Assembly (NCBI GenBank): GCA_009777005.1
Contig: WRMT01000001.1
Span: 1 to 32,109 of the forward strand
Length of the DNA stretch: 32,109 bases
Direction: 5' to 3'
Origin: Methanobrevibacter sp.
Lineage (GTDB): Archaea > Methanobacteriota > Methanobacteria > Methanobacteriales > Methanobacteriaceae
Below are positions 186-32,109 of the stretch, in pieces. Under the pieces are notes generated by a model. The model did not search any database, was not told where the DNA came from, and saw only the letters and a program-made list of their open reading frames with translations. The stretch's first letter is position 1. Every line of letters begins with the position of its first letter. The translations under genes and the position numbers were made by a program.

Positions 186-1763
186 TCATCGGATTGTTGT
201 TATTTGTGTTTGTAGTTGTTTTCCTGCAAATGCTATGGCAATAGCTATTATTTTTTTATCAAAGTATTTTTCATAGTACTTTTTATTCTTTATCTGTTCT
301 TCTGCACTTTTTAACATTTTTTCAAAGCTTATAATGGGTTGGTCTGTGTCTTTTTTGGTTTTTGAAAATTTAAATTCAGCTACTACTATAAAATCTTCTT
401 CTTTTAAAACCATGTCTATATATCCAGTATTAGTAGGAGTTTCTCCTTCTATTTCAAAACCTAAAGCATATAACCAAGCTAAAAAGATTGATAGATAATA
501 AAATTCTCGTTCAATATGAATTCTAGCAGGAATTCTTGCAAGAAAAGCTTTCATTTCTTTTTGAAAGCTATCATTATCAAGTTTTTCAATTTGTGAAATG
601 ATTTTATCTTTTCTTTCACTTATCTTATTTTCAGATAAATTTAAATCAATCAAATGATCTAGTAGAGAGCTTTCCACTTCAAAATTAGGAAATTCAAGTT
701 TATAATGGATGACATCATTGATAATTATCTTTTCAGTGATGGTTAAATATCCTGTTTGGAAAAATAAAGTTATAGGATCTAAATTATTATAATCAAAAGT
801 ATTAAACCTTGATTGTTTGATGATAATAGGTTTTAATACTGCTGAGTAGTCATTAGATTTTTTTAAAACATTTATAAGAAATTCTGGTGTTCCAGTATCA
901 AACCAATAGTCAGAAAATTCATAGCTATTAAATAATTTTAAGGTTGAAAAGGGATTATAAACCTTGTTTTCACCATCCCAACTATAACCATCATACCAAA
1001 AATTAATTTTTTCAAAAACTTGGTTTTCAGATAATGATAAATCATCTTTAAGAAGGTTTATATAATCTTTAAACTGATTTTTTAGCTCTTGATGAGTATA
1101 TCCACAAATACAAGCAAAATTCTTATTCAAAGTAATATCATTTAAATTATTTAAACCTGAAAAAATAGAAGTTTTAGAGAATTTACTTACACCTGTTAAA
1201 AATATGAATCTTAAATATTTATCATTAGATTTTAAAACTTGATAAAACCCACTTAAAACATCACGATTATGTTTAGCTACTTCAATGTTTTTGATAGCAT
1301 CTATTATAGGGAAATCATACTCATCAATGAGTACTACAACTTTTTTACCTGTTTTTTTATAAACTTCTATTATTAAGTCTGTGAATTTTTCAGATAAGTT
1401 TTTACTATAAAGTTTCACTGAAAATTCTCTTGTTAATCTATTAATTATATCATTTAAAATTATTTCTAATTTTTCAGGTGTTTTGTAGCTTCCTTTTCCA
1501 AGATCTATTTTCACTACAGGAAATTTTTCATTCCAATCCCATTTATCATAAATATAAAGATTTTTAAAAAGTTCTTTATTTCCTTTAAATAGCTCTTCTA
1601 AAGTACTAAGGAGTAATGACTTTCCAAATCTTCTGGGTCTTGATAAAAAATAAGTTTTACCCTTGTTAACCATTTCATAAATAGCTAATGTCTTGTCTAC
1701 ATATATATAATCCTCTTGGATAATTTCAGAGAAAGTCGACATCCCCAAAGGTAATTTTTTCAT
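186..1763 (-). CDS. AAA-ATPase-like / PD-(D/E)XK nuclease family protein (Pfam AAA-ATPase_like + PDDEXK_9/DUF1703-type architecture), paralog A
   Basis: The ORF track gives 186..1778. Motifs seen: P-loop-like SRPRRFGKSL, Walker-B-like VVVLIDEYD, and a C-terminal D...E-x-K nuclease motif (GYIDMVL...VAEFKFSK). I prefer the ATG at 1763 (MKKLPLG...) because a GGTGAGG Shine-Dalgarno lies 6 nt upstream and the paralog at 19734 starts MQKLPIG. Confidence 0.8.
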   Translation of the reverse strand: MKKLPLGMSTFSEIIQEDYIYVDKTLAIYEMVNKGKTYFLSRPRRFGKSLLLSTLEELFKGNKELFKNLYIYDKWDWNEKFPVVKIDLGKGSYKTPEKLEIILNDIINRLTREFSVKLYSKNLSEKFTDLIIEVYKKTGKKVVVLIDEYDFPIIDAIKNIEVAKHNRDVLSGFYQVLKSNDKYLRFIFLTGVSKFSKTSIFSGLNNLNDITLNKNFACICGYTHQELKNQFKDYINLLKDDLSLSENQVFEKINFWYDGYSWDGENKVYNPFSTLKLFNSYEFSDYWFDTGTPEFLINVLKKSNDYSAVLKPIIIKQSRFNTFDYNNLDPITLFFQTGYLTITEKIIINDVIHYKLEFPNFEVESSLLDHLIDLNLSENKISERKDKIISQIEKLDNDSFQKEMKAFLARIPARIHIEREFYYLSIFLAWLYALGFEIEGETPTNTGYIDMVLKEEDFIVVAEFKFSKTKKDTDQPIISFEKMLKSAEEQIKNKKYYEKYFDKKIIAIAIAFAGKQLQTQITTIR

Positions 1764-1814
1764 GAAAATCCTCACCATATTCTATTTATTTTTACAATCA
1801 TGTATATTTTTATT

Positions 1815-3832: not shown

Positions 3833-5191
3833 CTATCCCTCTAAAATCTTGAATTTTTCTTTATCAAATTCTTCTTGTGATATAACTCCAGCATCAAGTA
3901 ATTTTTTAAGTTTTAATAATCTATCATATGGATCTTCTTCTTTTTTAGCTTCTGTTGGTTCGGGTGCTTGTGATTCAGTTGTTTGTTGATTTACTTGCTC
4001 ATTATCTTGTTGATTTGCTTGTTGATTTGCTTGTTGATTTGCTTGTTGATTTGCTTGTTGATTTGCTTGTTGATTTGCTTGTTGATTTGCTTGTTGATTT
4101 GCTTGTTGATTTGTTTGTTGATTAGCTTGTTGTTGAATAAATTGTGATTGAGGTGTTTGGTCATTTTGTTGTGTGGCACCCATCATAGAACCAGAGGCAT
4201 TCATTCCCATTCCCATAAATGCCATATTTCCTCCACCACCATTTTCTCCTGCTGATTGCATACCTCGTGCTACTGATTGTTGCATGAATGAGTTTCCACG
4301 TGCTCCAGATAAAGCATCTGCTTTTTTAACATCACTTAACAAAGACTTTGTATCTTCATCATATTCAATGGATTGTATAGCTACTTTTACTATTTCAAGA
4401 CCTCTATCTGCTTTCCATTGGTATCCATCTTCTACAGCTTGTGACATTGATGATGCAAAACCAATTTGGTCTCCTTGAATTTTAGCTATACGATTTCCTT
4501 TATTTGGGTCATTAGTATAATTAGAAAATGCTGCTGCTAAGCTACTTACAACTTCATTAAATAGCTGTGAACCTAAATCATTATCCATATCTGCAAGATC
4601 TAATAATGGTGCATTTGATTGTAAATACATAGCTGGTACAAAGTTCTTTACAAATAATAGTGGATCAATTATTTTTAAAGTATATGTCCCTCTTGTAATT
4701 GCTCCAACTTGAGCACCTAAATATGCATCATCCCAGTAGATTTCTGATTGTGTTCCAAAACGGTTATTTGGTATCTCTTTTAAATTGACATAGAATGCAA
4801 GTTGTTGTACACCTGGTTGCCCACCAAACTTAAAACGCTCCCATGATTGTTCTAATATAGAGGATAAAATCCCATCTCCTGAAAACAATGATTTGGCATT
4901 AGGATCGTTAGAAGAGTATATAAACCCACCAGGTTCAGCAACAAGCCCTGTTATTGCTCCATCTTCCAATGTAATCAGTGCAGTGCCTTCTGGAACTATT
5001 ATTTTACTTCCGTTAGTAATAATATTTTTGGACCCTTCTGTATTTGAGCCACGACCAGCATTAGCTCCTTGTGGAACTGCTTCAAATAGTACTGATGTTA
5101 CAGTAACATCTTGTCTTGGTAAAAAAAAATCCTTCCACTGGTCAGCAAATGTTCCACTAATTGCTCCAGTAAATGCTTTAATAAATCCCAT
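3833..5191 (-). CDS. SPFH/Band-7-like protein of the COG4260 type ('virion core protein-like', YdjI-related) with G/M-rich linker, (QQAN)n tract and C-terminal SHOCT domain
   Basis: The N-terminus MGFIKAFTGAISGTFADQWKDFF...NIITNGSKIIVPEG matches my memory of this family. The C-terminus DPYDRLLKLKKLLDAGVISQEEFDKEKFKIL is SHOCT-like. An AGGAGA Shine-Dalgarno lies 9 nt upstream of the ATG. Confidence 0.75.
   Translation of the reverse strand: MGFIKAFTGAISGTFADQWKDFFLPRQDVTVTSVLFEAVPQGANAGRGSNTEGSKNIITNGSKIIVPEGTALITLEDGAITGLVAEPGGFIYSSNDPNAKSLFSGDGILSSILEQSWERFKFGGQPGVQQLAFYVNLKEIPNNRFGTQSEIYWDDAYLGAQVGAITRGTYTLKIIDPLLFVKNFVPAMYLQSNAPLLDLADMDNDLGSQLFNEVVSSLAAAFSNYTNDPNKGNRIAKIQGDQIGFASSMSQAVEDGYQWKADRGLEIVKVAIQSIEYDEDTKSLLSDVKKADALSGARGNSFMQQSVARGMQSAGENGGGGNMAFMGMGMNASGSMMGATQQNDQTPQSQFIQQQANQQTNQQANQQANQQANQQANQQANQQANQQANQQANQQDNEQVNQQTTESQAPEPTEAKKEEDPYDRLLKLKKLLDAGVISQEEFDKEKFKILEG
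4001..4132 (-). repeat. In-frame 12-bp tandem repeat: 11 units, of which 8 are identical (4013..4108), encoding (QQAN)n
   Basis: Direct parsing gives attatcttgttg, then 8 x atttgcttgttg, then atttgtttgttg, then attagcttgttg. Confidence 0.95.
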
Positions 5192-5422
5192 GAAAAATCT
5201 CTCCTAAATTTTTTATATAGATTTAATTTTGTGTCTACAAAACTATTTTTTTATTAAATAACCTTTATAAGCAGAATTAGTTAATAGGTTAAAATCTTCA
5301 TTTTTTATGTTATATAAAATAGTGAGAATTTCAAAAAACATAATTAAGTATTACATATTTATCTATTTGATTAATGAAATTTCTATTTTATATAAACAAT
5401 TTGGAAAAAATATTTATTAAAA

Positions 5423-5540
5423 ATTTTAAAAATATACTTTATAAAATAACTTTTAAAAATGCATTAATAACTTTTAAAAATATATTTTATATAAAAACTT
5501 TTAAAAATGCATTAATAACTTTTAAAAATATATTTTATAA
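5423..5540. repeat. 48-bp-period tandem repeat, about 2.5 copies, upstream of the SPFH operon
   Basis: The unit acttttaaaaatgcattaataacttttaaaaatatattttata occurs at 5449 and 5497, with a partial copy before the first. ORF 5374..5568 is an artefact of this repeat. Confidence 0.85.
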
Positions 5541-5960
5541 AAAATGTATAGAAAATTTAAAAAAATGATTTTTGAAATTATCTAATAATTATGTATATAT
5601 TGATACATGATTTAAATATTTTTTATATATTTTAATTTTAAATTGAAGTCATTGTACAATTTTATTTTTGATGAACAAAATTAAAAAAATATTAAATAAA
5701 AAAATATAAATTAATAATTGAACAAAATTGGCTATATTCAATTTTTTTTAAATTTTAAATTTTTATTTATAAAAAGCTTTAGCAAAAATAATTATCCAAT
5801 AGCTAGTGCTGATAAAAATTTACCTCTTATTAAATTTTTCATCATACACACATCTTATAGAGATATATCCTAATCATTTTAATCTTATATGATGTTATCC
5901 TTCAAAATCAACTATTAGGTGTAAGTTTCATAATCTTATTTTAAGAAAGTATTATTCATT

Positions 5961-8519
5961 TTATCCTTTTTCAATCTTTTTTATTAAATCATTAGCTATT
6001 TTTTCAGATTTTACATCATTGAGAGAATTAGCTATTCTTTTTACTGCTTCTAGGTTTCTAACAAACTTATCAAGCCAAGAAAAAACATCTCCAGAATATG
6101 TTTGAATTTGGTAAGAGCTAAATAAGTCCTTTGAAATGTCAGTTGGATCTTTTCTCTTCAATCGTTCATTAATAATAAATTCAGAAACCCCTTTTTGAAG
6201 ACAGGTGCAAAATGGCTTATCTTTACATTTACACTGTAAAAAATCAATTTGTATCTTTAAAAGAGCTTCTTGAAATTTCGTGTCCAACTTAGCTATTGTA
6301 TCTCCTGAAGAAATAATATCCATAGTAGATTCAGAAAATAGTCTTGTTGAAAAATTTACTTTTAAGGTATTAACTATTTGTTTATGAACAGCTGGTGCCA
6401 GGTATGCACTTTCAAAGTATTCTAAGTCCATAGCTATTTCCATGAACTTATAATATAAATCTTCTTTTTTAGACCTATGTAACAATGAATTTTTTATAAA
6501 TTCTCCATTTTCAATATCTAAAAAAGACATAGCTACTGCTTTTCCATAGCTAGTAGGTTGAACATATTCATGTGATTTTAACTTAGAATTATTCTTATTT
6601 TTATTAGAAATAGCTATTAATCCTTTATCATATAGCTCATCAATAGCTTTACCTACACTCATAGGTATTGGTAATTTTTCATAAAAATCATGAATTTCAG
6701 AAATCTTTTCTAATGAGTGTGAACATATATCAGCTAAAATTTGTTCTAAGGTGTCATTTTCATTATAATCTATGCTAACTTTTTCCACATCACCTTCTAA
6801 AAGTGAAATAGCTACTGACTCTTCACTTTCACCATCAAATTTATTAGATATTTCTGGAAGAAGATAAACAACACCTCTATCATGATAACTTGGTCTACCT
6901 GCTCTTCCAACCATTTGTGAAAATTCGTTTGGTGATATCCATCTATTTCCCATTAAAAGTGTTTCAAAAATTACTGATGATGCTGGAAAATCCACTCCTG
7001 CAGCTAATGCTGATGTTGTAACAACAGCTGAAATTTTCCCACTTGCAAAATTTTTTTCAATCTTTTCTTTTTTAAAGTAAGAAAGACCTGCATGATATGG
7101 TGATGCATTTATTCTATTACGATTTAAGTAGTTAGCTATTTGATGAGTTTTTCTCCTAGAATTAGTAAATATTATTGTTTGACCACTAAACCCCTTAGAT
7201 GATTTTGTTTTAAACTCTTTTAATACTAATTTTCTAATAATATTCCTTTTTTCAACTTCACTTCTTACAAAGATAAGATGTCTCTTTAAAGGAACAGGGC
7301 GAAAATCATACTGAACTAATTTCATATTAAATTTTTCTGTTAAATATTTAGGATTTTTAACAGTAGCTGAAAGACCAATTATCTGAGTAGAGGGATAAAT
7401 ATTTTCAATTCTTTTAATTAATCCATAGAGTCTTATACCTCTTTCATCATCATCTAAAGTATGAATTTCATCAATAAGTATCAAACCAAGGTCTTTTAAA
7501 TAATCTGATTTTCCAGATCTAAGTAAAAAATCTATTCCTTCATAAGTTCCAACAATAATATCAGCATCTTTTATAGATGAACTAGGAATTTTAAGCTCTT
7601 CTTTTGCTTTTATCCTATTCATACCAACTTTAATAGAAACTTTAAGACCTAGTGACTCATATCGCTTTTTAAAATCCCTGTATTTTTGATTAGCTAATGC
7701 TACAAGAGGAGTTAAAAATATAAACTTTTTACCATCTATAGCTTTTGGAATACCAGCTAACTCTCCAATCAATGTTTTTCCACTTGCAGTAGCTGAAACA
7801 ACTAACAAGTCTTCATCCTTTAATAAACCATTCTTAATAGCTAAATACTGTACAGGCAGCAAATATTCATTGTTTTCTTCTAAAAGAATTTTTTTAAATT
7901 TTTTTGGAATTTTAAGTCTATTAAGTTTAACTTGTGGAATTTTTTTATTATTATAAGTTTTGATTTCATCAAATAAAGTTAAGTTTAAATTAGCTACTGG
8001 ATCAAAGTTATGGTTAATCATAGATAATACTTTATCTAAGTTACCAGTTTTGTTTAATATTCTTTTAAAATTTTTAAATGATTTTTTATCAAATCTCTGA
8101 AGTTTAAGTTCTCTTTTTATTGTTTCTTCAGCACAAATTTTACAAATATTTTGATTATGATATGAATAGCTAAAGCTGGAATTTATTATAGTTATATTTC
8201 CTTCTAAAGTACAATGACTACAAATCCTAGTAAAACGATAATCTATATTCAAAAGTTTAAGAAAGCTTTCCATTTCTTTATCTTTAGAAGTTAAAAAAAT
8301 AGTTTGACTTCTCAGTAGTTTAATAACCTCAGAAGGAGGAATTAATTTTTCTTCCTCATTATATTTAGCTATAAATTTATTAATGGAAACTCCTTTAGCA
8401 TTTTTTTCAAATTTAAGAAAACCTACAAACTCAGGAATTCTTTTAGTATTTAAAGCTCCTTTGGGACTTCCAATAGGATACATTATCCAAGATTTCTTTG
8501 TTCTTTTAAATATAATCAT
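5961..8519 (-). CDS. Ski2-like DEAH helicase with N-terminal 4-Cys zinc finger (ASH-Ski2 / Eta-like)
   Basis: Helicase motifs seen: Walker A SATASGKT, motif II DEIH, motif III SAT, motif VI QMVGRAGR. The ~230-aa N-terminal extension carries CSHC...CKIC. A C-terminal Cys cluster CKCKDKPFCTC is also present. No Shine-Dalgarno is seen, so the start is uncertain (alternative ATG at 8483). Confidence 0.8.
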   Translation of the reverse strand: MIIFKRTKKSWIMYPIGSPKGALNTKRIPEFVGFLKFEKNAKGVSINKFIAKYNEEEKLIPPSEVIKLLRSQTIFLTSKDKEMESFLKLLNIDYRFTRICSHCTLEGNITIINSSFSYSYHNQNICKICAEETIKRELKLQRFDKKSFKNFKRILNKTGNLDKVLSMINHNFDPVANLNLTLFDEIKTYNNKKIPQVKLNRLKIPKKFKKILLEENNEYLLPVQYLAIKNGLLKDEDLLVVSATASGKTLIGELAGIPKAIDGKKFIFLTPLVALANQKYRDFKKRYESLGLKVSIKVGMNRIKAKEELKIPSSSIKDADIIVGTYEGIDFLLRSGKSDYLKDLGLILIDEIHTLDDDERGIRLYGLIKRIENIYPSTQIIGLSATVKNPKYLTEKFNMKLVQYDFRPVPLKRHLIFVRSEVEKRNIIRKLVLKEFKTKSSKGFSGQTIIFTNSRRKTHQIANYLNRNRINASPYHAGLSYFKKEKIEKNFASGKISAVVTTSALAAGVDFPASSVIFETLLMGNRWISPNEFSQMVGRAGRPSYHDRGVVYLLPEISNKFDGESEESVAISLLEGDVEKVSIDYNENDTLEQILADICSHSLEKISEIHDFYEKLPIPMSVGKAIDELYDKGLIAISNKNKNNSKLKSHEYVQPTSYGKAVAMSFLDIENGEFIKNSLLHRSKKEDLYYKFMEIAMDLEYFESAYLAPAVHKQIVNTLKVNFSTRLFSESTMDIISSGDTIAKLDTKFQEALLKIQIDFLQCKCKDKPFCTCLQKGVSEFIINERLKRKDPTDISKDLFSSYQIQTYSGDVFSWLDKFVRNLEAVKRIANSLNDVKSEKIANDLIKKIEKG

Positions 8520-9576: not shown

Positions 9577-9757
9577 AAATCAATAATAAAAAATTAATTT
9601 AAAAAATTACTATTATTCTCTTTTTATTAAATTAAAAAATTAAAAAATAATAATTATCTACTAAATTAATCAATAATAAAAAAAATTACTATTATTCTCT
9701 TTTTATTAAATTAAAAAATTAAAAAATAATTATCTACTAAATTAATCAATAATAATA
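9577..9757. repeat. 76-79-bp-period direct repeat, about 2 copies plus a partial copy
   Basis: The unit attactattattctctttttattaaattaaaaaattaaaaaataa(taa)ttatctactaaattaatcaataataa occurs at 9606 and 9685. Confidence 0.85.
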
Positions 9758-10092
9758 AAAATAATATTTTAAAAAATAATATTTATTCATTTATAACTAA
9801 AATTAATAATAAAAATTATATTATCTATTCTAACTAATCGTTAAATTATTGATAAACATTAAAATTCAATTACTATTTTTTAAACAAAATAAATATTTTT
9901 ATGAATAATTTAAATAATACTAAAGTAAATATAAAGTTAGTATTTAATTTAAAATAAAATTATAAGATTATTATAAATTTAAAACTTTTAATAAAGTTTT
10001 AGATAAAGTAAAGATAACATTTTGAATTTTTCAAAAAAAAAGAAATTAAAAAATAACTATCCACCAAGATAAATATGTTTATAGGCGGTATT

Positions 10093-11534: not shown

Positions 11535-11790
11535 ATAAATAGGAAAATCGTTAGACAATAAACAAATAAGGAAATTTCTAAGCAATTAACAAAATAGAAA
11601 AATCTTTAGACAATAAACAAATAAGGAAATTTCTAAGCAATTAACAAAATAGAAAAATCTTTAGACAATTAACAAATAAGGAAATTTCTAAGCAATTAAG
11701 AAAATAGGAAAATCTTTAGACAATTAACTAATAAGGAAATTTCTAATCAATTAACAAAATAGGAAAATCTTTAGATAATTAACAAATAAT
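11508..11790 (+). repeat. Tandem array of about 10 subunits of 27-28 bp, in two alternating variants with a 55-bp super-period, starting inside the last codons of the thioesterase CDS
   Basis: The landmark ttagaca recurs at 11523, 11551, 11606, 11661 and 11716, with ttagata at 11771. The A-type unit is aaaataggaaaatctttagacaattaac and the B-type unit is aaataaggaaatttctaagcaattaac. The CDS end attggaaaatctttagacaactga is itself an A-type unit. Confidence 0.9.
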
Positions 11791-13881: not shown

Positions 13882-14044
13882 TATGTTTAACAGTGTCTAC
13901 TTAGCACTAATGGAAGAACTTGAATAAAAACAATAATTTCATTTGATGAACATTTGTACGACAAAGGAATAGTAAGAATACATTAATAATCAAGACCATT
14001 TAAACTAAAGAAAAAATAGCTAAATTACAAAACAATTTATTAAA

Positions 14045-14280
14045 AAAAGAATTTACAAATTTTATTCTTTTAAAATCTAGAAAAAAGAAGTTCTTTTAAA
14101 TAAAAAATTAAGAATTATATTCTTTAAAAATTTAGAAAAAATAAGTTCTTTTAAATAAGAAATTAAGAATTATATTCTTTAAAAATTTAGAAAAAAAAAG
14201 TTTTTTTAAATAAGAAATTAAAAATAATATTCTTTAAAAATTTAGAAAAAAGAAGTTTTTTTAAATAAGAAATTAAAAAT
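14045..14280. repeat. 55-bp-period tandem repeat, about 4 copies
   Basis: The landmark tattcttt recurs at 14063, 14118, 14173 and 14228. The unit is roughly aagaattatattctttaaaaatttagaaaaaagaagttcttttaaataagaaatt. Confidence 0.9.
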
Positions 14281-15564: not shown

Positions 15565-17010
15565 TCAATTATTTTGATTTGCAGTAAATTCATTAATTTT
15601 TAATTTCTCATTACAACTGTGACATTTAATAATATTTCCTATAAATTTTTCATGAATATCAAAAGTTTTAGCACAATAGCTACACCTAACTTTAAGGTTA
15701 TTATTAGTATATCGAAGCATGCCATCTTTAAACATGATTTTAGAACCGTTAGCCTTAAATTTAAGGTTACTATTTGTATCTTGGAGAGGAGTTACAATAG
15801 CTATTCCTTGTTTTAAGTTTTTAATGGAGTAAATTAATATTTCTCCAGAATCCGTTCCTACTGTGATTTGATGATTGTTATTCGAAAAAACACAGGATCT
15901 TATGTAATCGTCTATATTTATCGATATTATGGGTTCTTGTTTTTCTTCATTTTTTTCCCAGTCCCAAACACAAACAGTACCATCCTCTGAACCCGAAACA
16001 ATATATTTTCCATCAGGAGAAAAACACACACTCCACACAATGTCTGTATGTCTTAATCTAGTTTTTTCCTCTTTTTTTTCCCAGTCCCAAACACGAACAG
16101 TACCATCCTCTGATCCCGAAACAATATATTTTCCATCAGGAGAAAAACACACACTCCACACATTGCGTGTGTGTCCTTTTAATATTGTTTTTTCCTCTTT
16201 TTTTTCCCAGTCCCAAACACGAACAGTACCATCCCTTGATCCAGAAACAATATATTTTCCATCAGGAGAAAAACACACACTCTCCACAAAGCCAGTGAGT
16301 CCTTTTAATATTGTTTTTTCCTCTTTTTTTTCCCAGTCCCAAACACGAACAGTACCATCCCCTGATCCCAAAATATATTTTCCATCAGGAGAAAAACACA
16401 CACTCTCCACAAAGCCAGTGAGTCCTTTTAATATTGTTTTTTCCTCTTTTTTTTCCCAATCCCAAACACGAACAGTACCATCCCCTGATCCCGAAACAAT
16501 ATATTTTCCATCAGGAGAAAAACACACACTCACCACATCGTCTGTGTGTCCTTTTAATATTGTTTTTTCCTCTTTTTTTTCCCAGTCCCAAACACGAACA
16601 GTCCCATCCCTTGATCCCGAAACAATATATTTTCCATCAGGAGAAAAACACACACTAAACACATAGCTTGTGTGTCCTTTTAATATTGTTTTTTCCTCAT
16701 TTTTTTCCCAGCTCCAAACACGAACAGTCCCATCCCATGATCCCGAAACAATATATTTTCCATCAGGAGAAAAACACGCAATACTCACGGTGGTTGGGTG
16801 AGCAAGTATTGCTTTGAGTGAACCTTCGGGTGTGTGCATATAATGATGTGGTTTTAGCCATGGGAAATTGGTTTGTTTTTCTATTTCATTTAATAATTCT
16901 TTAATCTGAGGATTTATTTGTGTTTTTAATCTTCCCCATAGTTGAGAAGGTAATTCTTTAATATTGTCTTGTAGAATATATGAAGACATAGATAAAGTTT
17001 TTTTAATCAA
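15565..17010 (-). CDS. WD40 beta-propeller protein (7 near-identical blades plus 1 degenerate) with C-terminal CxxC...CxxC zinc ribbon
   Basis: Repeats have the form CFSPDGKYIVSGSxDGTVRVWDWEKKEEKTILKGHTxxVxSV. The C-terminus is CSYCAKTF...CHSCNEKL. The start is ambiguous: a TTG at 17010 overlaps the upstream stop, or the ATG at 16989. Confidence 0.85.
   Translation of the reverse strand: MIKKTLSMSSYILQDNIKELPSQLWGRLKTQINPQIKELLNEIEKQTNFPWLKPHHYMHTPEGSLKAILAHPTTVSIACFSPDGKYIVSGSWDGTVRVWSWEKNEEKTILKGHTSYVFSVCFSPDGKYIVSGSRDGTVRVWDWEKKEEKTILKGHTDDVVSVCFSPDGKYIVSGSGDGTVRVWDWEKKEEKTILKGLTGFVESVCFSPDGKYILGSGDGTVRVWDWEKKEEKTILKGLTGFVESVCFSPDGKYIVSGSRDGTVRVWDWEKKEEKTILKGHTRNVWSVCFSPDGKYIVSGSEDGTVRVWDWEKKEEKTRLRHTDIVWSVCFSPDGKYIVSGSEDGTVCVWDWEKNEEKQEPIISINIDDYIRSCVFSNNNHQITVGTDSGEILIYSIKNLKQGIAIVTPLQDTNSNLKFKANGSKIMFKDGMLRYTNNNLKVRCSYCAKTFDIHEKFIGNIIKCHSCNEKLKINEFTANQNN
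15935..16800 (-). repeat. Seven DNA-level tandem copies of a 126-bp unit (two copies are 123 bp) encoding the WD40 blades
   Basis: The landmark cccagtccc (cccaatccc in one copy) recurs at 15957, 16080, 16206, 16332, 16455, 16581 and 16707. Confidence 0.95.
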
Positions 17011-26228: not shown

Positions 26229-27083
26229 TTAAAATAGAATATTATCAATATTATCTTTTAGCATATTATAATTTAAAACATAATCAATTGATCTCATAGC
26301 AAATTTTAGAGTAGTGAACATTTTTTTCCATCCCTGTCCATCAGTTATCCAAATAAATGTCATGTCTAAATCACTAATTTTTTTTTGTAAATCAATATAT
26401 GCGTTTGCAGTTTCAATCGGTTTACTTCCTCCTGCAGAATAAAAATTACATTCAAAAAGAAATAGAGGAATATCATCTTTATATATAACAAAATCGGCTC
26501 TTTTATTTCTTTTAGTTTTTATACTGCTATCTTCTGAGGTCAAAGAGTATTGAGGATTATTTTCAATGCTTTTTTCTAATAAATCACCTACAATTCCTTC
26601 AAATACATGCCCACTTCTATTTTTTCGAGCATTAGTGTCTAAACCAACTTCTGTTCCAGTTAAATATGAATAAAGATCATCAATTTCATTAAAAAGATTA
26701 AGTAATCCAGTTTTTCTGGAAAAAGTTAAAACTTCATCTAACTTAAAGTTATTCATTGAAAAATCTATCTTTTTAAATGTTTGGGTTGTTAAATCAATCA
26801 CATCAACTTTTTTATCCCTAATAGCTAAAACTAATGGTAAAATAGGAACACATTCAGGATATTTTTTTAAAATTTCTATAAATTTATCTTCAACTTTATC
26901 TGAACCAATTTTATTTAAACTATTTAAAATATTAATCTCAACAACTTTATTTTCGAGATTACCAAAAACTTTTTCCCAATCTACAAAAAACTCATATGTG
27001 CGGTTTGTAGTAAGTAATGAATCATCATAATCCAAAGTGTACTCCTCAAAAGATTTATATCCCAATTTTTCATAATAAACCAT
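26229..27083 (-). CDS. Type II restriction endonuclease, DpnII/MboI family (GATC)
   Basis: NILNSLNKIGSDKVEDKFIEILKKYPECVPILPLVLAIRDKK resembles my memory of the DpnII N-terminus (NSLIG..EDF..YPE..VPLLIAKR). GLDTNARKNRSGHVFE is also present. ATG at 27083 with a TGAGGT Shine-Dalgarno is preferred; the track's TTG at 27098 would overlap the methylase stop. Confidence 0.8.
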   Translation of the reverse strand: MVYYEKLGYKSFEEYTLDYDDSLLTTNRTYEFFVDWEKVFGNLENKVVEINILNSLNKIGSDKVEDKFIEILKKYPECVPILPLVLAIRDKKVDVIDLTTQTFKKIDFSMNNFKLDEVLTFSRKTGLLNLFNEIDDLYSYLTGTEVGLDTNARKNRSGHVFEGIVGDLLEKSIENNPQYSLTSEDSSIKTKRNKRADFVIYKDDIPLFLFECNFYSAGGSKPIETANAYIDLQKKISDLDMTFIWITDGQGWKKMFTTLKFAMRSIDYVLNYNMLKDNIDNILF

Positions 27084-27094
27084 TTTTATTAACC

Positions 27095-28033
27095 TCAATA
27101 ATTTTTAACTAGAATTTCATTAATTGCTCCTCTTTTTTTAGCATCTCGATTAATAAATCTTTTTGCTTGAACACGTTTTATATCATATTTGCCATATAAA
27201 TCGTCGAAGAAATTGTCATTTTCATCCTCATTTTTAGGATCAGAATTGCTTAAAATAGCTAATGCTCCTTTTTTACTTATTCTATAAAAATAATGAGCTA
27301 ATTCTACTTGATCCTCGTCATTAAATTCATTTTCACTATAACTAGTGAAATTTGAAGTTTTATTAAGTGGTCTGTATGGAGGATCTAGATAAACTAAAGA
27401 TTCTTCATCAATTAATTTTTCTGATTCTATAAAACTTTTATTAAATATATTAGATATTTTTAAAGCTTTTGAAACATTTTTAACATTAGTTTCATCACAA
27501 ATTGTAGGATTTTTATAATCCCCCATAGGAACATTAAATTCTCCTTTTTTATTTAGCCTAAAAAGTCCATTGAAACAAGTTTTATTAAGAAAAATAGTTT
27601 GAGAAGCTCTAATAATATGTTTATTAGTGTAATTATTAAAAGAAAAACTTTTTAAGTTATGATTAAATTCTTTTCTAATAGACAAATAATATTCTTTTCT
27701 TTCACTATGATCTTTAGGCAAAAAATGATTTTGAAGGTCAGTTAAATGATTAATCAATTCTTGATGATCATTTTTAATTACATTATATGTTAAAATCAGT
27801 TCTTTATTGATATCATAAAGAAAAGCCTTTTTGATATTATAATTACTAGCTAAATGAAAGAAAACAGCACCCCCACCAACAAAAGGCTCGAAATAGGATT
27901 TAATTTTTTTATTTTTCGTGAAAATATCAGGCAATATTGATTCTATTTCATTAATAAGCTGTGTTTTTCCACCTGCCCACTTTAAAAATGGTTTAGCTTT
28001 GATTTTTTCATTATTAAAAAGATCCATTTGCAT
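27095..28033 (-). CDS. Dam-family (MethyltransfD12, DpnM-like) N6-adenine DNA methyltransferase
   Basis: Motifs seen: PFLKWAGGKTQL, motif I EPFVGGGAVFF, motif IV VYLDPPY. The gene lies directly upstream of the endonuclease and in the same direction. Confidence 0.9.
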   Translation of the reverse strand: MQMDLFNNEKIKAKPFLKWAGGKTQLINEIESILPDIFTKNKKIKSYFEPFVGGGAVFFHLASNYNIKKAFLYDINKELILTYNVIKNDHQELINHLTDLQNHFLPKDHSERKEYYLSIRKEFNHNLKSFSFNNYTNKHIIRASQTIFLNKTCFNGLFRLNKKGEFNVPMGDYKNPTICDETNVKNVSKALKISNIFNKSFIESEKLIDEESLVYLDPPYRPLNKTSNFTSYSENEFNDEDQVELAHYFYRISKKGALAILSNSDPKNEDENDNFFDDLYGKYDIKRVQAKRFINRDAKKRGAINEILVKNY

Positions 28034-29129: not shown

Positions 29130-29295
29130 AAAGAAATAATTAAACCAATAGGAAAAACCCAAAAAACTAGGAAAAATAAAAAACACCAAAAAATAATTAA
29201 ACCAATAGGAAAAACCCAAAAAACTAGGAAAAATAAAAAACACCAAAAAATAATTAAACCAATAGGAAAAATTAAAAATACTTGGAAAAATCAAT
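29130..29295. repeat. 57-bp-period tandem repeat, about 2.7 copies
   Basis: The landmark accaatagg recurs at 29144, 29201 and 29258. ORFs 29088..29294 and 29112..29300 on both strands are artefacts of this repeat. Confidence 0.9.
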
Positions 29296-31880: not shown

Positions 31881-32109
31881 TACAAGTTTTTTATTAATTA
31901 TTTTTTTCAATAGTGTACATCATAAGAAATATTATAATAAAAAAATTTCTTTTTTTTAAAATTATATAAATAAAGATTAATAAATATGAAAAAATTATAG
32001 ATATTATAAAGTTTATAAGGAATATTAATATGTCTAAATTTAATATTAAAATAATTTTAATGATTTTAATTATACAAATTATTTTGGAAAAAAATTATCC
32101 TCATAATTT

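Follow-up and report, generated by a model that had tools for sequence, protein, structure and literature searches.

A tandem array of near-identical WD40 blades with four hypervariable codons in a frameshifted NLR-like gene from Methanobrevibacter

Introduction

Contig WRMT01000001.1 of the Methanobrevibacter sp. assembly GCA_009777005.1 was analysed from position 1 to position 32,109, and this whole stretch of 32,109 nucleotides is hereafter referred to as the window. On its minus strand, the window carries an NLR-like gene that is split by a one-nucleotide frameshift into two open reading frames (ORFs), the second of which contains a tandem array of WD40 repeats. The array comprises seven near-identical blades followed by a degenerate eighth one. 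A first-pass annotation of the sequence had proposed that the differences between the blades are confined to about four codons per unit, and that the propeller is a fast-evolving recognition surface rather than a scaffold. Here, we consider it likely that the array is the ligand-sensing propeller of an NLR-like DUF4062-NACHT-WD40 STAND protein of about 1229 amino acids, which would be built of amplified units and have a top face diversified by selection.

Organization of the NLR-like gene

The gene can be described as composed of the following elements.

15565-19253, minus strand: NLR-like gene with the order DUF4062, NACHT, helical linker, WD40 propeller and zinc ribbon, in two ORFs with a one-nucleotide frameshift
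17007-19253, minus strand: ORF1, 748 amino acids, with DUF4062 and a NACHT/NPHP3_N-type P-loop
18678-19235, minus strand: predicted DUF4062 (TeTIR/NIR) TIR-like NADase effector domain, residues 7-192 of ORF1
17844-18275, minus strand: NACHT/NPHP3_N-type STAND P-loop NTPase core, with Walker A AGLGKT and Walker B IIIIDGINQ
17007-17016, minus strand: frameshift site, CAT TTA AAT TGA on the coding strand, where the TTG of ORF2 overlaps the TGA of ORF1
15565-17010, minus strand: ORF2, 481 amino acids, with the WD40 array
16819-17010, minus strand: helical linker ahead of the propeller, with the motif LPSQLWGRLK, placed from homologues and from model helices at residues 2-46 that have low confidence
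15595-15699, minus strand: C-terminal CxxC...CxxC zinc-ribbon-like tail (CSYCAKTF...KCHSCNEK), read from the sequence

The DUF4062 domain was identified with Pfam (PF13271, E=8.2e-12, residues 12-101 of ORF1). In a phmmer search, the DUF4062 region of residues 7-192 matched the human TEP1 crystal chain 11gz_A with an E-value of 7.5e-24, in an alignment that places SVTEIEIE on SVTEMEV. The motif SVTEIEIEHA contains E121, E123 and E125, which are invariant in an alignment of nine homologues (alignment A1). Both candidate catalytic glutamates of TEP1 are matched, by E121 and E123, and from the construct numbering one of the matched TEP1 residues would be E1008. The NTPase core, located in residues 327-470 of ORF1, matches the Pfam family NPHP3_N (E=1.2e-6) and, more weakly, NB-ARC and NACHT; its residues G356, G358, K359, D434, N437 and Q438 are invariant in alignment A1. 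The helical linker is conserved in the fused homologues. The motif of the zinc-ribbon-like tail is also found in the homologues P0003 and P0008, and in the structural model described below this tail forms four short strands (residues 438-472, pLDDT 74-82).

In homologues, the junction between the two halves of the gene reads ...ENYHLK(L/M/I)IKNTLSMSS..., while in the window ENYHLN is followed by a stop codon and LIKKTLSMSS continues in the -1 frame. The insertion of one A in the AAA run at 17011-17013 gives an ORF of 1229 amino acids, which aligns end to end with P0003 (residues 5-1226 against 1-1244), P0004 and P0005. Because this single insertion restores an ORF that is colinear with the fused homologues, the array encodes the sensor of a single DUF4062-NACHT-WD40 gene that is frameshifted. 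The proposal that the propeller belongs to an NLR-like protein therefore stands, with DUF4062 and NACHT directly upstream and in frame after the one-nucleotide correction. Effector, NTPase and repeats are all encoded, but in two frames. The junction itself is probably a plain A4-to-A3 deletion.

Anatomy of the repeat array

Using Tandem Repeats Finder (TRF), we found on the minus strand, at 15940-16777, a repeat with a period of 126 bp, 6.7 copies, 93% matches and 1% indels. In ORF2, Pfam detects seven WD40 repeats with an E-value of 2.5e-98. Two registers are used to describe the array: the units U1 to U7 start at CFSPDG, and the blades B1 to B7 start at TILKGHTxxVxSV.

16776-16651, minus strand: U1, 126 bp
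16650-16525, minus strand: U2, 126 bp
16524-16399, minus strand: U3, 126 bp
16398-16276, minus strand: U4, 123 bp
16275-16150, minus strand: U5, 126 bp
16149-16027, minus strand: U6, 123 bp
16026-15901, minus strand: U7, 126 bp, of which only the first ~85 nucleotides (two thirds) are repeat-derived
15940-16815, minus strand: seven-blade block, from TRF, codon alignment and Pfam
16815-16690, minus strand: B1
16689-16564, minus strand: B2
16563-16438, minus strand: B3
16437-16315, minus strand: B4, 123 bp
16314-16189, minus strand: B5
16188-16063, minus strand: B6
16062-15940, minus strand: B7, 123 bp

These coordinates, together with TRF, bear out the earlier description of seven tandem units of 126 bp, two of which are reduced to 123 bp by in-frame 3-bp deletions. 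The units had also been estimated to be more than 90% identical, which holds for the internal units, as it does for the TRF average of 93%, but not for the two edge units. The pairwise nucleotide identity is 88-98% among U1-U6, while that of U7 is 71-76% over its full length. Blades B2-B6 are 91-98% identical, and 95.5-99% identical once four hypervariable (HV) codons are dropped. Units U3 and U4, which are 98.4% identical and differ by two substitutions and a 3-bp indel, confirm the very recent duplication that had been suggested for two adjacent blades. The unit identity (93% by TRF, 91-98% for B2-B6) reaches the level of about 80-90% or more that marks WD40 repeats of high internal conservation (HIC).

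Outside the HV sites, the amino acid differences among B2-B6 are H/L at position 6 and a change of VS to L that results from a 3-bp deletion. B7 has further differences (I2R, K4R, loss of G5, R32C and K39N), and the first 13 residues of B1 have diverged. The G+C content of the array (15940-16777) is 38%, that of the NTPase part of the gene is 30% and that of the contig is 25%; the higher value in the array may reflect the amino acid composition of WD40 repeats or a foreign origin. A repetitive plus-strand ORF at 15929-16666 (245 amino acids) was rejected as a gene and is regarded as an antisense by-product of the array.

Clustering of the variation in four codons

Variation between the blades is concentrated at positions 8, 9, 11 and 27.

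16668-16663, 16659-16657 and 16611-16609, minus strand: HV codons 8, 9, 11 and 27 of the 42-codon blade, as located in B2

At these sites, the residues listed in the first-pass annotation are exact, both for GHT-xx-V-x (SY/F, DD/V, GF/E, GF/E, RN/W and DI/W) and for SGS-x-DG (W, R, G, G, R, E and E). In a comparison of B2-B6, the HV codons account for 12 nucleotide columns, 9 of which are variable, while the remaining 114 columns include 7 variable ones (Fisher p=1.3e-7). The pairwise nucleotide difference reaches 0.433 within the HV codons, 16-fold the value of 0.027 outside them. The Nei-Gojobori pN/pS ratio ranges from 11.5 (B2-B6) to 16.1 (B2-B7) at the four HV codons and from 0.17 to 0.22 at the other codons; this ratio compares 6-7 paralogous units, which are probably in concerted evolution, and is descriptive rather than a formal, standard test. 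The pS outside the HV codons is about 0.08-0.12. A per-codon calculation of variability and dN/dS on the aligned units had been suggested as a check on the four-codon proposal, and its outcome is in line with it, as the variation is clustered and the ratio exceeds 1 at the HV sites (11-16 against about 0.2).

Within the HV codons, positions 1 and 2 are variable in 8 of 8 columns, while position 3 is variable in 1 of 4, a count which comes from four columns only and which is not clearly higher than the 7 of 114 in the remainder of the unit. The third base is constant in three of these codons, which have the form NNC at position 8, NNT at position 9 and NNG at position 27. Since a local mutation hotspot should also strike codon position 3, we take this pattern as a sign of selection at the amino acid level. 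At the non-HV codons, purifying selection is supported by the pN/pS of about 0.2. In having few HV codons on the interaction surface, the array resembles HIC WD40 NLRs, a likeness drawn here from the comparison of paralogous units.

Predicted structure of the propeller

The AlphaFold2 model of ORF2 has a mean pLDDT of 83, with values of 95-99 across the repeated blades. The model contains 32 strands between residues 65 and 395, where the pLDDT is mostly above 90, and these strands form eight blades, seven repeated and one degenerate. Its best superposition is with the eight-bladed protein Tako8, with a template modelling (TM) score of 0.95 and a root mean square deviation of 1.4 Å. The last blade was delimited from the AlphaFold2 strands and from the tails of homologues.

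15820-15939, minus strand: degenerate eighth blade QEPIISINIDDYIRSCVFSNNNHQITVGTDSGEILIYS, which closes the propeller in the model

This degenerate blade is kept in P0002, P0003, P0008 and L001-L003.

According to DSSP, positions 8 and 9 of the blade are located in the D-A loop, position 11 comes second in strand A, and position 27 is in the B-C turn. A rule that predicts the top-face hotspots of WD40 proteins from sequence has been published (Wu et al. 2012, PMC3419727). In this rule, R1 follows the first V/L/I of (V/L/I)-R1-R2-(V/L/I), R1-2 is the residue two positions ahead of R1, and D-1 is the residue before the tetrad Asp. Applied to the segments V10-x11-S12-V13 and S26-x27-D28, it identifies R1 as position 11, R1-2 as position 9 and D-1 as position 27. 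Three of the four HV codons are thus predicted to be canonical top-face ligand-contact hotspots, and the fourth, position 8 (R1-3), is their neighbour in the D-A loop. This placement, which comes from DSSP on the model and from the published rule rather than from atomic coordinates, agrees with the earlier expectation that the variable residues map to the top face of the propeller.

Homologues and distribution of the family

The fused homologues have 975-1299 amino acids and continue into WD40 repeats, with blade numbers that range from about 8 to 15. P0002, from a Methanobrevibacter metagenome-assembled genome (MAG), is the closest of the NLR homologues, with 68% identity. P0002 has 14 canonical blades, and P0004 has 8 near-identical ones. 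When the blade positions of these two proteins are ranked by entropy, positions 8, 9 and 27 are within the top five in both, and position 11 is the top one in P0002 and number seven in P0004. The more distant loci L001-L003 have the same CFSPDGKY blade type with diverged blades (TRF 70-72% for L003). TRF was also run on 78 related loci from species-representative genomes, of which none is as homogeneous as the present array, the best being L043 with 84%. Members of the family thus show high internal conservation only sporadically, and not as a fixed trait; where it recurs at the protein level, the same positions vary.

Among species-representative genomes, the nearest homologues are found in Bacteroidales/Tannerella MAGs (48-50% amino acid identity), followed by Methanobrevibacter (43-46%). 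The loci L001-L004 and L008, from bacterial gut MAGs of Bacteroidales/Tannerella, are closer than the Methanobrevibacter representatives. Protein identities of this kind suggest a cross-domain gene transfer within the gut community. The nucleotide identity to the Bacteroidales/Tannerella loci is only 63-70%, so that any transfer was not recent; a recent cross-domain transfer at the DNA level was rejected on this value. The isolate names, taken by themselves, suggest that some of the Tannerella MAGs are derived from termite gut.

A homologue search with the WD40 ORF returned generic WD40 proteins only. An exact search of metagenome contigs with a 29-nucleotide repeat core returned a single distant locus, L079, with about 66-70% nucleotide identity. 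On the minus strand of this contig, an NLR homologue at 1-~3940 is cut off by the contig start, and directly next to it, at 3991-6951, a protein of 986 amino acids is encoded. The latter has a TIR-like motif (DAFISYRH) at its N-terminus and a long repeat-like C-terminus.

Comparison with known systems

By its domain content, we assign the gene to the DUF4062/TeTIR-NACHT-WD40 family, and neither to HNWD nor to WRAP in the strict sense. It shares the order DUF4062-NACHT-helical-WD40 with TEP1, NWD1, NWD2 and their prokaryotic homologues, and it has both the DUF4062 domain directly upstream of the NACHT NTPase and the conserved glutamates that are expected of the TEP1/NWD-like family. In 2026 preprints, DUF4062 (TeTIR/NIR) is described as a TIR-like NADase of bacterial anti-phage systems and of TEP1. 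The order DUF4062-NACHT-WD40 is given there for the human proteins NWD1, NWD2 and TEP1, and further members of the family are noted in several bacteria and archaea. The DUF4062 defence systems named there are Swarozyc, Vulcan, Vesta and Avs2-DUF4062. According to the same texts, the validated bacterial DUF4062 systems sense by TPR and other domains, not by WD40, and the accessible portion of the DUF4062/TeTIR literature makes no mention of near-identical repeats with HV codons.

The HNWD repeats of Podospora have a length of 126 bp (42 amino acids) and four hypervariable codons on the interaction surface (PMC12222747). Like the HNWD proteins of Podospora anserina, such as HET-E and HET-D, the present gene encodes, though in two frames, an effector, a NACHT domain and WD40 repeats, with near-identical 126-bp units and four HV surface codons. 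Diversifying selection on the HV codons, unit duplications and indels are further common features (PMC12222747; Dyrka et al. preprint), and the repeats of bacterial NLRs were proposed in the Dyrka et al. preprint to follow the fungal regimen. Unlike HNWD, it has a DUF4062 effector instead of HET, an archaeal host, a frameshifted gene and eight predicted blades, compared with the 10-11 or more repeats that form a double propeller in HNWD. No HET domain was matched in the Pfam output, the N-terminus being DUF4062 (E=8.2e-12), and so the gene is not a member of the HNWD family. We found no evidence of common descent with the fungal repeats beyond the WD40 superfamily. Because the effector domain differs, the comparison with HET-E/HNWD made in the first-pass annotation holds as a functional analogy, but not as family membership.

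The WRAP protein Npun_R6612 of Nostoc punctiforme (2YMU) likewise carries, on the C-terminal side of a STAND NTPase, WD40 blades that are nearly identical to one another. Frameshifts often disrupt the WRAP propellers of STAND ATPases, and such propellers have been suggested to act in innate immunity (PMC9218822). Near-identical blades of the WD40 superfamily C-terminal to a STAND ATPase are a hallmark of WRAP that the present array has; the nearly absent synonymous divergence and the two 7-bladed propellers are hallmarks that it lacks, with a pS of 0.08-0.12 and a single 8-bladed model. In Npun_R6612, 14 blades show 10 point differences and no synonymous changes, in contrast to the 7+1 blades and clustered non-synonymous changes found here. 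The effector of the Npun_R6612 system is a TIR domain on a separate, coupled STAND protein, while here DUF4062 is fused in cis. Finally, highly repetitive (HR) prokaryotic WD40 proteins, as described by Hu et al. 2017 (PMC5587647), combine conserved blades with diversity at predicted top-face hotspots, and the present array shares both features. That survey counts only 63 archaeal WD40 proteins in total, and in its accessible part no Methanobrevibacter case was seen.

The pattern has thus already been published for fungal HNWD, WRAP and HR WD40 NLRs, and no new mechanism is described here. What is new is the Methanobrevibacter host, the combination of a DUF4062 effector with a highly internally conserved sensor, and the clean internal statistics.

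Discussion

The favoured reading, that the array is the ligand-sensing propeller of an NLR-like receptor, can be extended to a mechanism by analogy with Apaf-1, the bacterial Avs/bNACHT proteins, the DUF4062 defence proteins and fungal HET-E. Recent amplification and/or homogenisation of one 126-bp unit, possibly through unequal recombination, slippage or gene conversion, would have produced seven of the eight blades. Selection would keep the codons at R1-3, R1-2, R1 and D-1 different between the blades, and the top face would be a mosaic recognition surface assembled from interchangeable cassettes. The binding of a non-self protein to the propeller could then release the NACHT module for oligomerisation, which in turn would switch on NAD+ hydrolysis by DUF4062 and lead to growth arrest or abortive infection. 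The ligand, the activation of the NADase and the role in defence are all drawn from these analogues. As for the claim that the propeller is a fast-evolving recognition surface and not a scaffold, it is partly supported, within the array, by the clustering, the pN/pS ratios and the hotspots, and by the behaviour of P0002 and P0004.

Several observations weigh against this receptor reading. The frameshift may have inactivated this copy of the gene, or else it may stem from an error in the assembly. One residue is missing at a structurally conserved position in each of two blades, as B7 lacks the G of GH and B4 a residue of strand B, and Leu replaces the tetrad His in two blades; together with the frameshift, these changes are compatible with decay. 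Unit number and unit order may be artefacts of assembly in this apparently metagenome-assembled contig, as arrays of such 126-bp repeats mis-assemble from short reads (PMC12222747). The pN/pS comparison is of the descriptive kind stated above. No strain-level relative was found in genome or metagenome contig collections with the NTPase protein as a query. Among the defence models of PADLOC, only weak matches at the level of the P-loop were obtained (PDC-M16A, 2.4e-5; STAND_TPR, 1.7e-3), while the WD40 part matched a generic repeat model. There is no obvious defence island around the gene in the window; a DpnII restriction-modification pair lies ~7 kb away. Moreover, according to a 2026 preprint, three prokaryotic TeTIR domains tested in vitro and in isolation had no NADase activity.

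The most serious of the alternatives is that the gene is a decaying pseudogene, in which the hypervariability would be the fossil of a once-functional receptor. The one-nucleotide frameshift between NACHT and WD40, the 3-bp deletions at conserved blade positions, the change of the tetrad His to Leu and the frequent disruption of WRAP-type propellers (PMC9218822) all fit this explanation, as does the start of ORF2, a TTG or ATG with no purine-rich Shine-Dalgarno-like motif upstream. Nevertheless, we regard it as possible but doubtful, given that the ORFs of 748 and 481 amino acids are both free of stop codons, the non-HV codons retain a pN/pS of about 0.2, the model is a confident closed propeller in spite of the indels (pLDDT 95-99 in the repeated blades), and the frameshift, being in a homopolymer, is possibly a sequencing or assembly error. 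An assembly artefact could also affect the array as a whole, which would then be a collapsed or chimeric version of a longer array, for example of 14 blades, or of several strains or paralogues, so that the number of units, the side-by-side placement of the two identical blades and the indels would not be real. The contig apparently comes from a single metagenome-derived assembly, 126-bp units near the read length are prone to mis-assembly from short reads (PMC12222747), and the closest homologue, P0002, has 14 canonical blades. On the other side, unique sequence flanks the array at both ends, the array closes into a plausible eight-bladed propeller, a blade number also found in P0004, and the variation between units would be real even if their order is wrong. 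We consider this explanation rather unlikely. It is much harder to see the array as the product of a neutral, very recent amplification of one blade, as in the WRAP scenario, with differences due to random drift, although the top sequence match in the Protein Data Bank is the Nostoc WRAP propeller 2YMU (E=1.5e-118) and propellers are reported to be amplified continuously from single blades and then to decay (Pereira and Lupas, PMC9218822). The differences are not random (9 of 12 HV columns against 7 of 114, with the 16-fold nucleotide difference), they fall on codon positions 1 and 2 and on position 3 in 1 of 4 columns, pS elsewhere is non-zero at ~0.08-0.12, unlike in Npun_R6612, and P0002 and P0004 vary at the same positions. 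Neutral drift is therefore a highly unlikely account.

Two further explanations assign a dedicated device to the locus. The split between ORF1 and ORF2 could be deliberate, by programmed -1 frameshifting at U_UUA_AAU or by phase variation of the homopolymer, and would give a sensor-less NADase-NACHT protein and a minor full-length receptor. The site is a canonical X_XXY_YYZ heptamer in the correct frame, directly 5' of the TGA, and the product of a -1 shift would be colinear with the homologues. Such heptamers, though, occur at 1.9% of codons in this AT-rich contig, with 0.13 expected in the overlap of 7 codons, and all sequenced homologues are fused, including the closest, P0002; because of this frequency and of the fused homologues, a programmed -1 frameshift is very improbable. 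No downstream stimulatory structure was seen, none having been sought. Targeted mutagenesis could in principle write the variable codons, for example by a diversity-generating retroelement (DGR) of the AAY-codon type. Three of the four HV codons have an unchanging third base (NNC, NNT and NNG), and the sensors that DGRs diversify in some bacteria include STAND-associated ones (PMC10907252). Selection on amino acid change predicts such a constant base as well, no reverse transcriptase was matched by Pfam among the ORFs of at least 100 amino acids in the window, the 32 kb contain no further copy of the unit to act as a template repeat, and the accessible part of the DGR literature contains no WD40 propeller as a target. 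A DGR is thus scarcely conceivable, and the writing of the HV codons by one on this contig was excluded for want of a reverse transcriptase match and a template copy.

The receptor reading, with selection on the top face, extends the combination of near-identical repeats and HV surface codons from fungal allorecognition NLRs and cyanobacterial STAND proteins to a gut methanogen. It also couples such a sensor to a DUF4062 TIR-like NADase effector, recognised in 2026 as an enzyme of defence and of TEP1. Four variable residues per blade in seven repeated blades make 28 variable positions on one face. If functional, the gene would offer a compact natural system in which to study the targets of archaeal NLRs. 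A far wider picture can be drawn, in which natural Methanobrevibacter populations rewrite NLR specificity by recombination of four-codon cassettes, the family is traded with gut Bacteroidales, the A-run/U_UUA_AAU junction is an on/off or -1 frameshift switch of the sensor, and the gene is the first archaeal counterpart of HET-E/HNWD; we regard this picture as speculative and improbable. The locus also flags a class of genes prone to mis-assembly in metagenomes and to splitting by gene callers.

Genomic surroundings

The neighbouring genes of housekeeping type point to a Methanobrevibacter of the termite-gut clade as the host of the contig. They encode a DUF5814 helicase, a probable FAD-dependent oxidoreductase of the geranylgeranyl-reductase type, a THUMP methyltransferase and a HisA/F-like protein. 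The DUF5814 helicase is 80-82% identical to proteins of Methanobacteriaceae/Methanobrevibacter MAGs, 71% identical to that of M. cuticularis and 70% to that of strain TMH8. Other genes of the window are the following.

26229-28033, minus strand: DpnII-type restriction endonuclease and D12-class N6-adenine methyltransferase, which overlap by 4 nucleotides, ~7 kb from the NLR-like gene
186-1778, minus strand: predicted AAA-ATPase (PF09820) fused to a PD-(D/E)XK nuclease domain (PF08011), paralogue 1
19734-21314, plus strand: predicted AAA-ATPase (PF09820) fused to a PD-(D/E)XK nuclease domain (PF08011), paralogue 2

One of the two PF09820-PF08011 paralogues is the divergent neighbour of the NLR-like gene.

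The window contains several other tandem repeats. Two intergenic arrays with a 55-bp unit, at 11537-11789 (4.6 copies, 94%) and 14043-14280 (4.3 copies, 91%), sit on either side of a block that comprises an acyl-CoA synthetase and an RHH protein. More AT-rich intergenic tandem repeats, with periods of 40, 57, 79 and 156 bp, are found at 23705-23882, 29134-29291, 9601-9762 and 2078-2373, and the repeat with the 156-bp period includes homopolymers A28 and A29. A 12-bp repeat at 3979-4132 (12.8 copies, 90% match) lies within the coding ORF 3833-5191, whose product has a weak SPFH/Band-7 match and a SHOCT domain, and corresponds to a tetrapeptide repeat in this protein.

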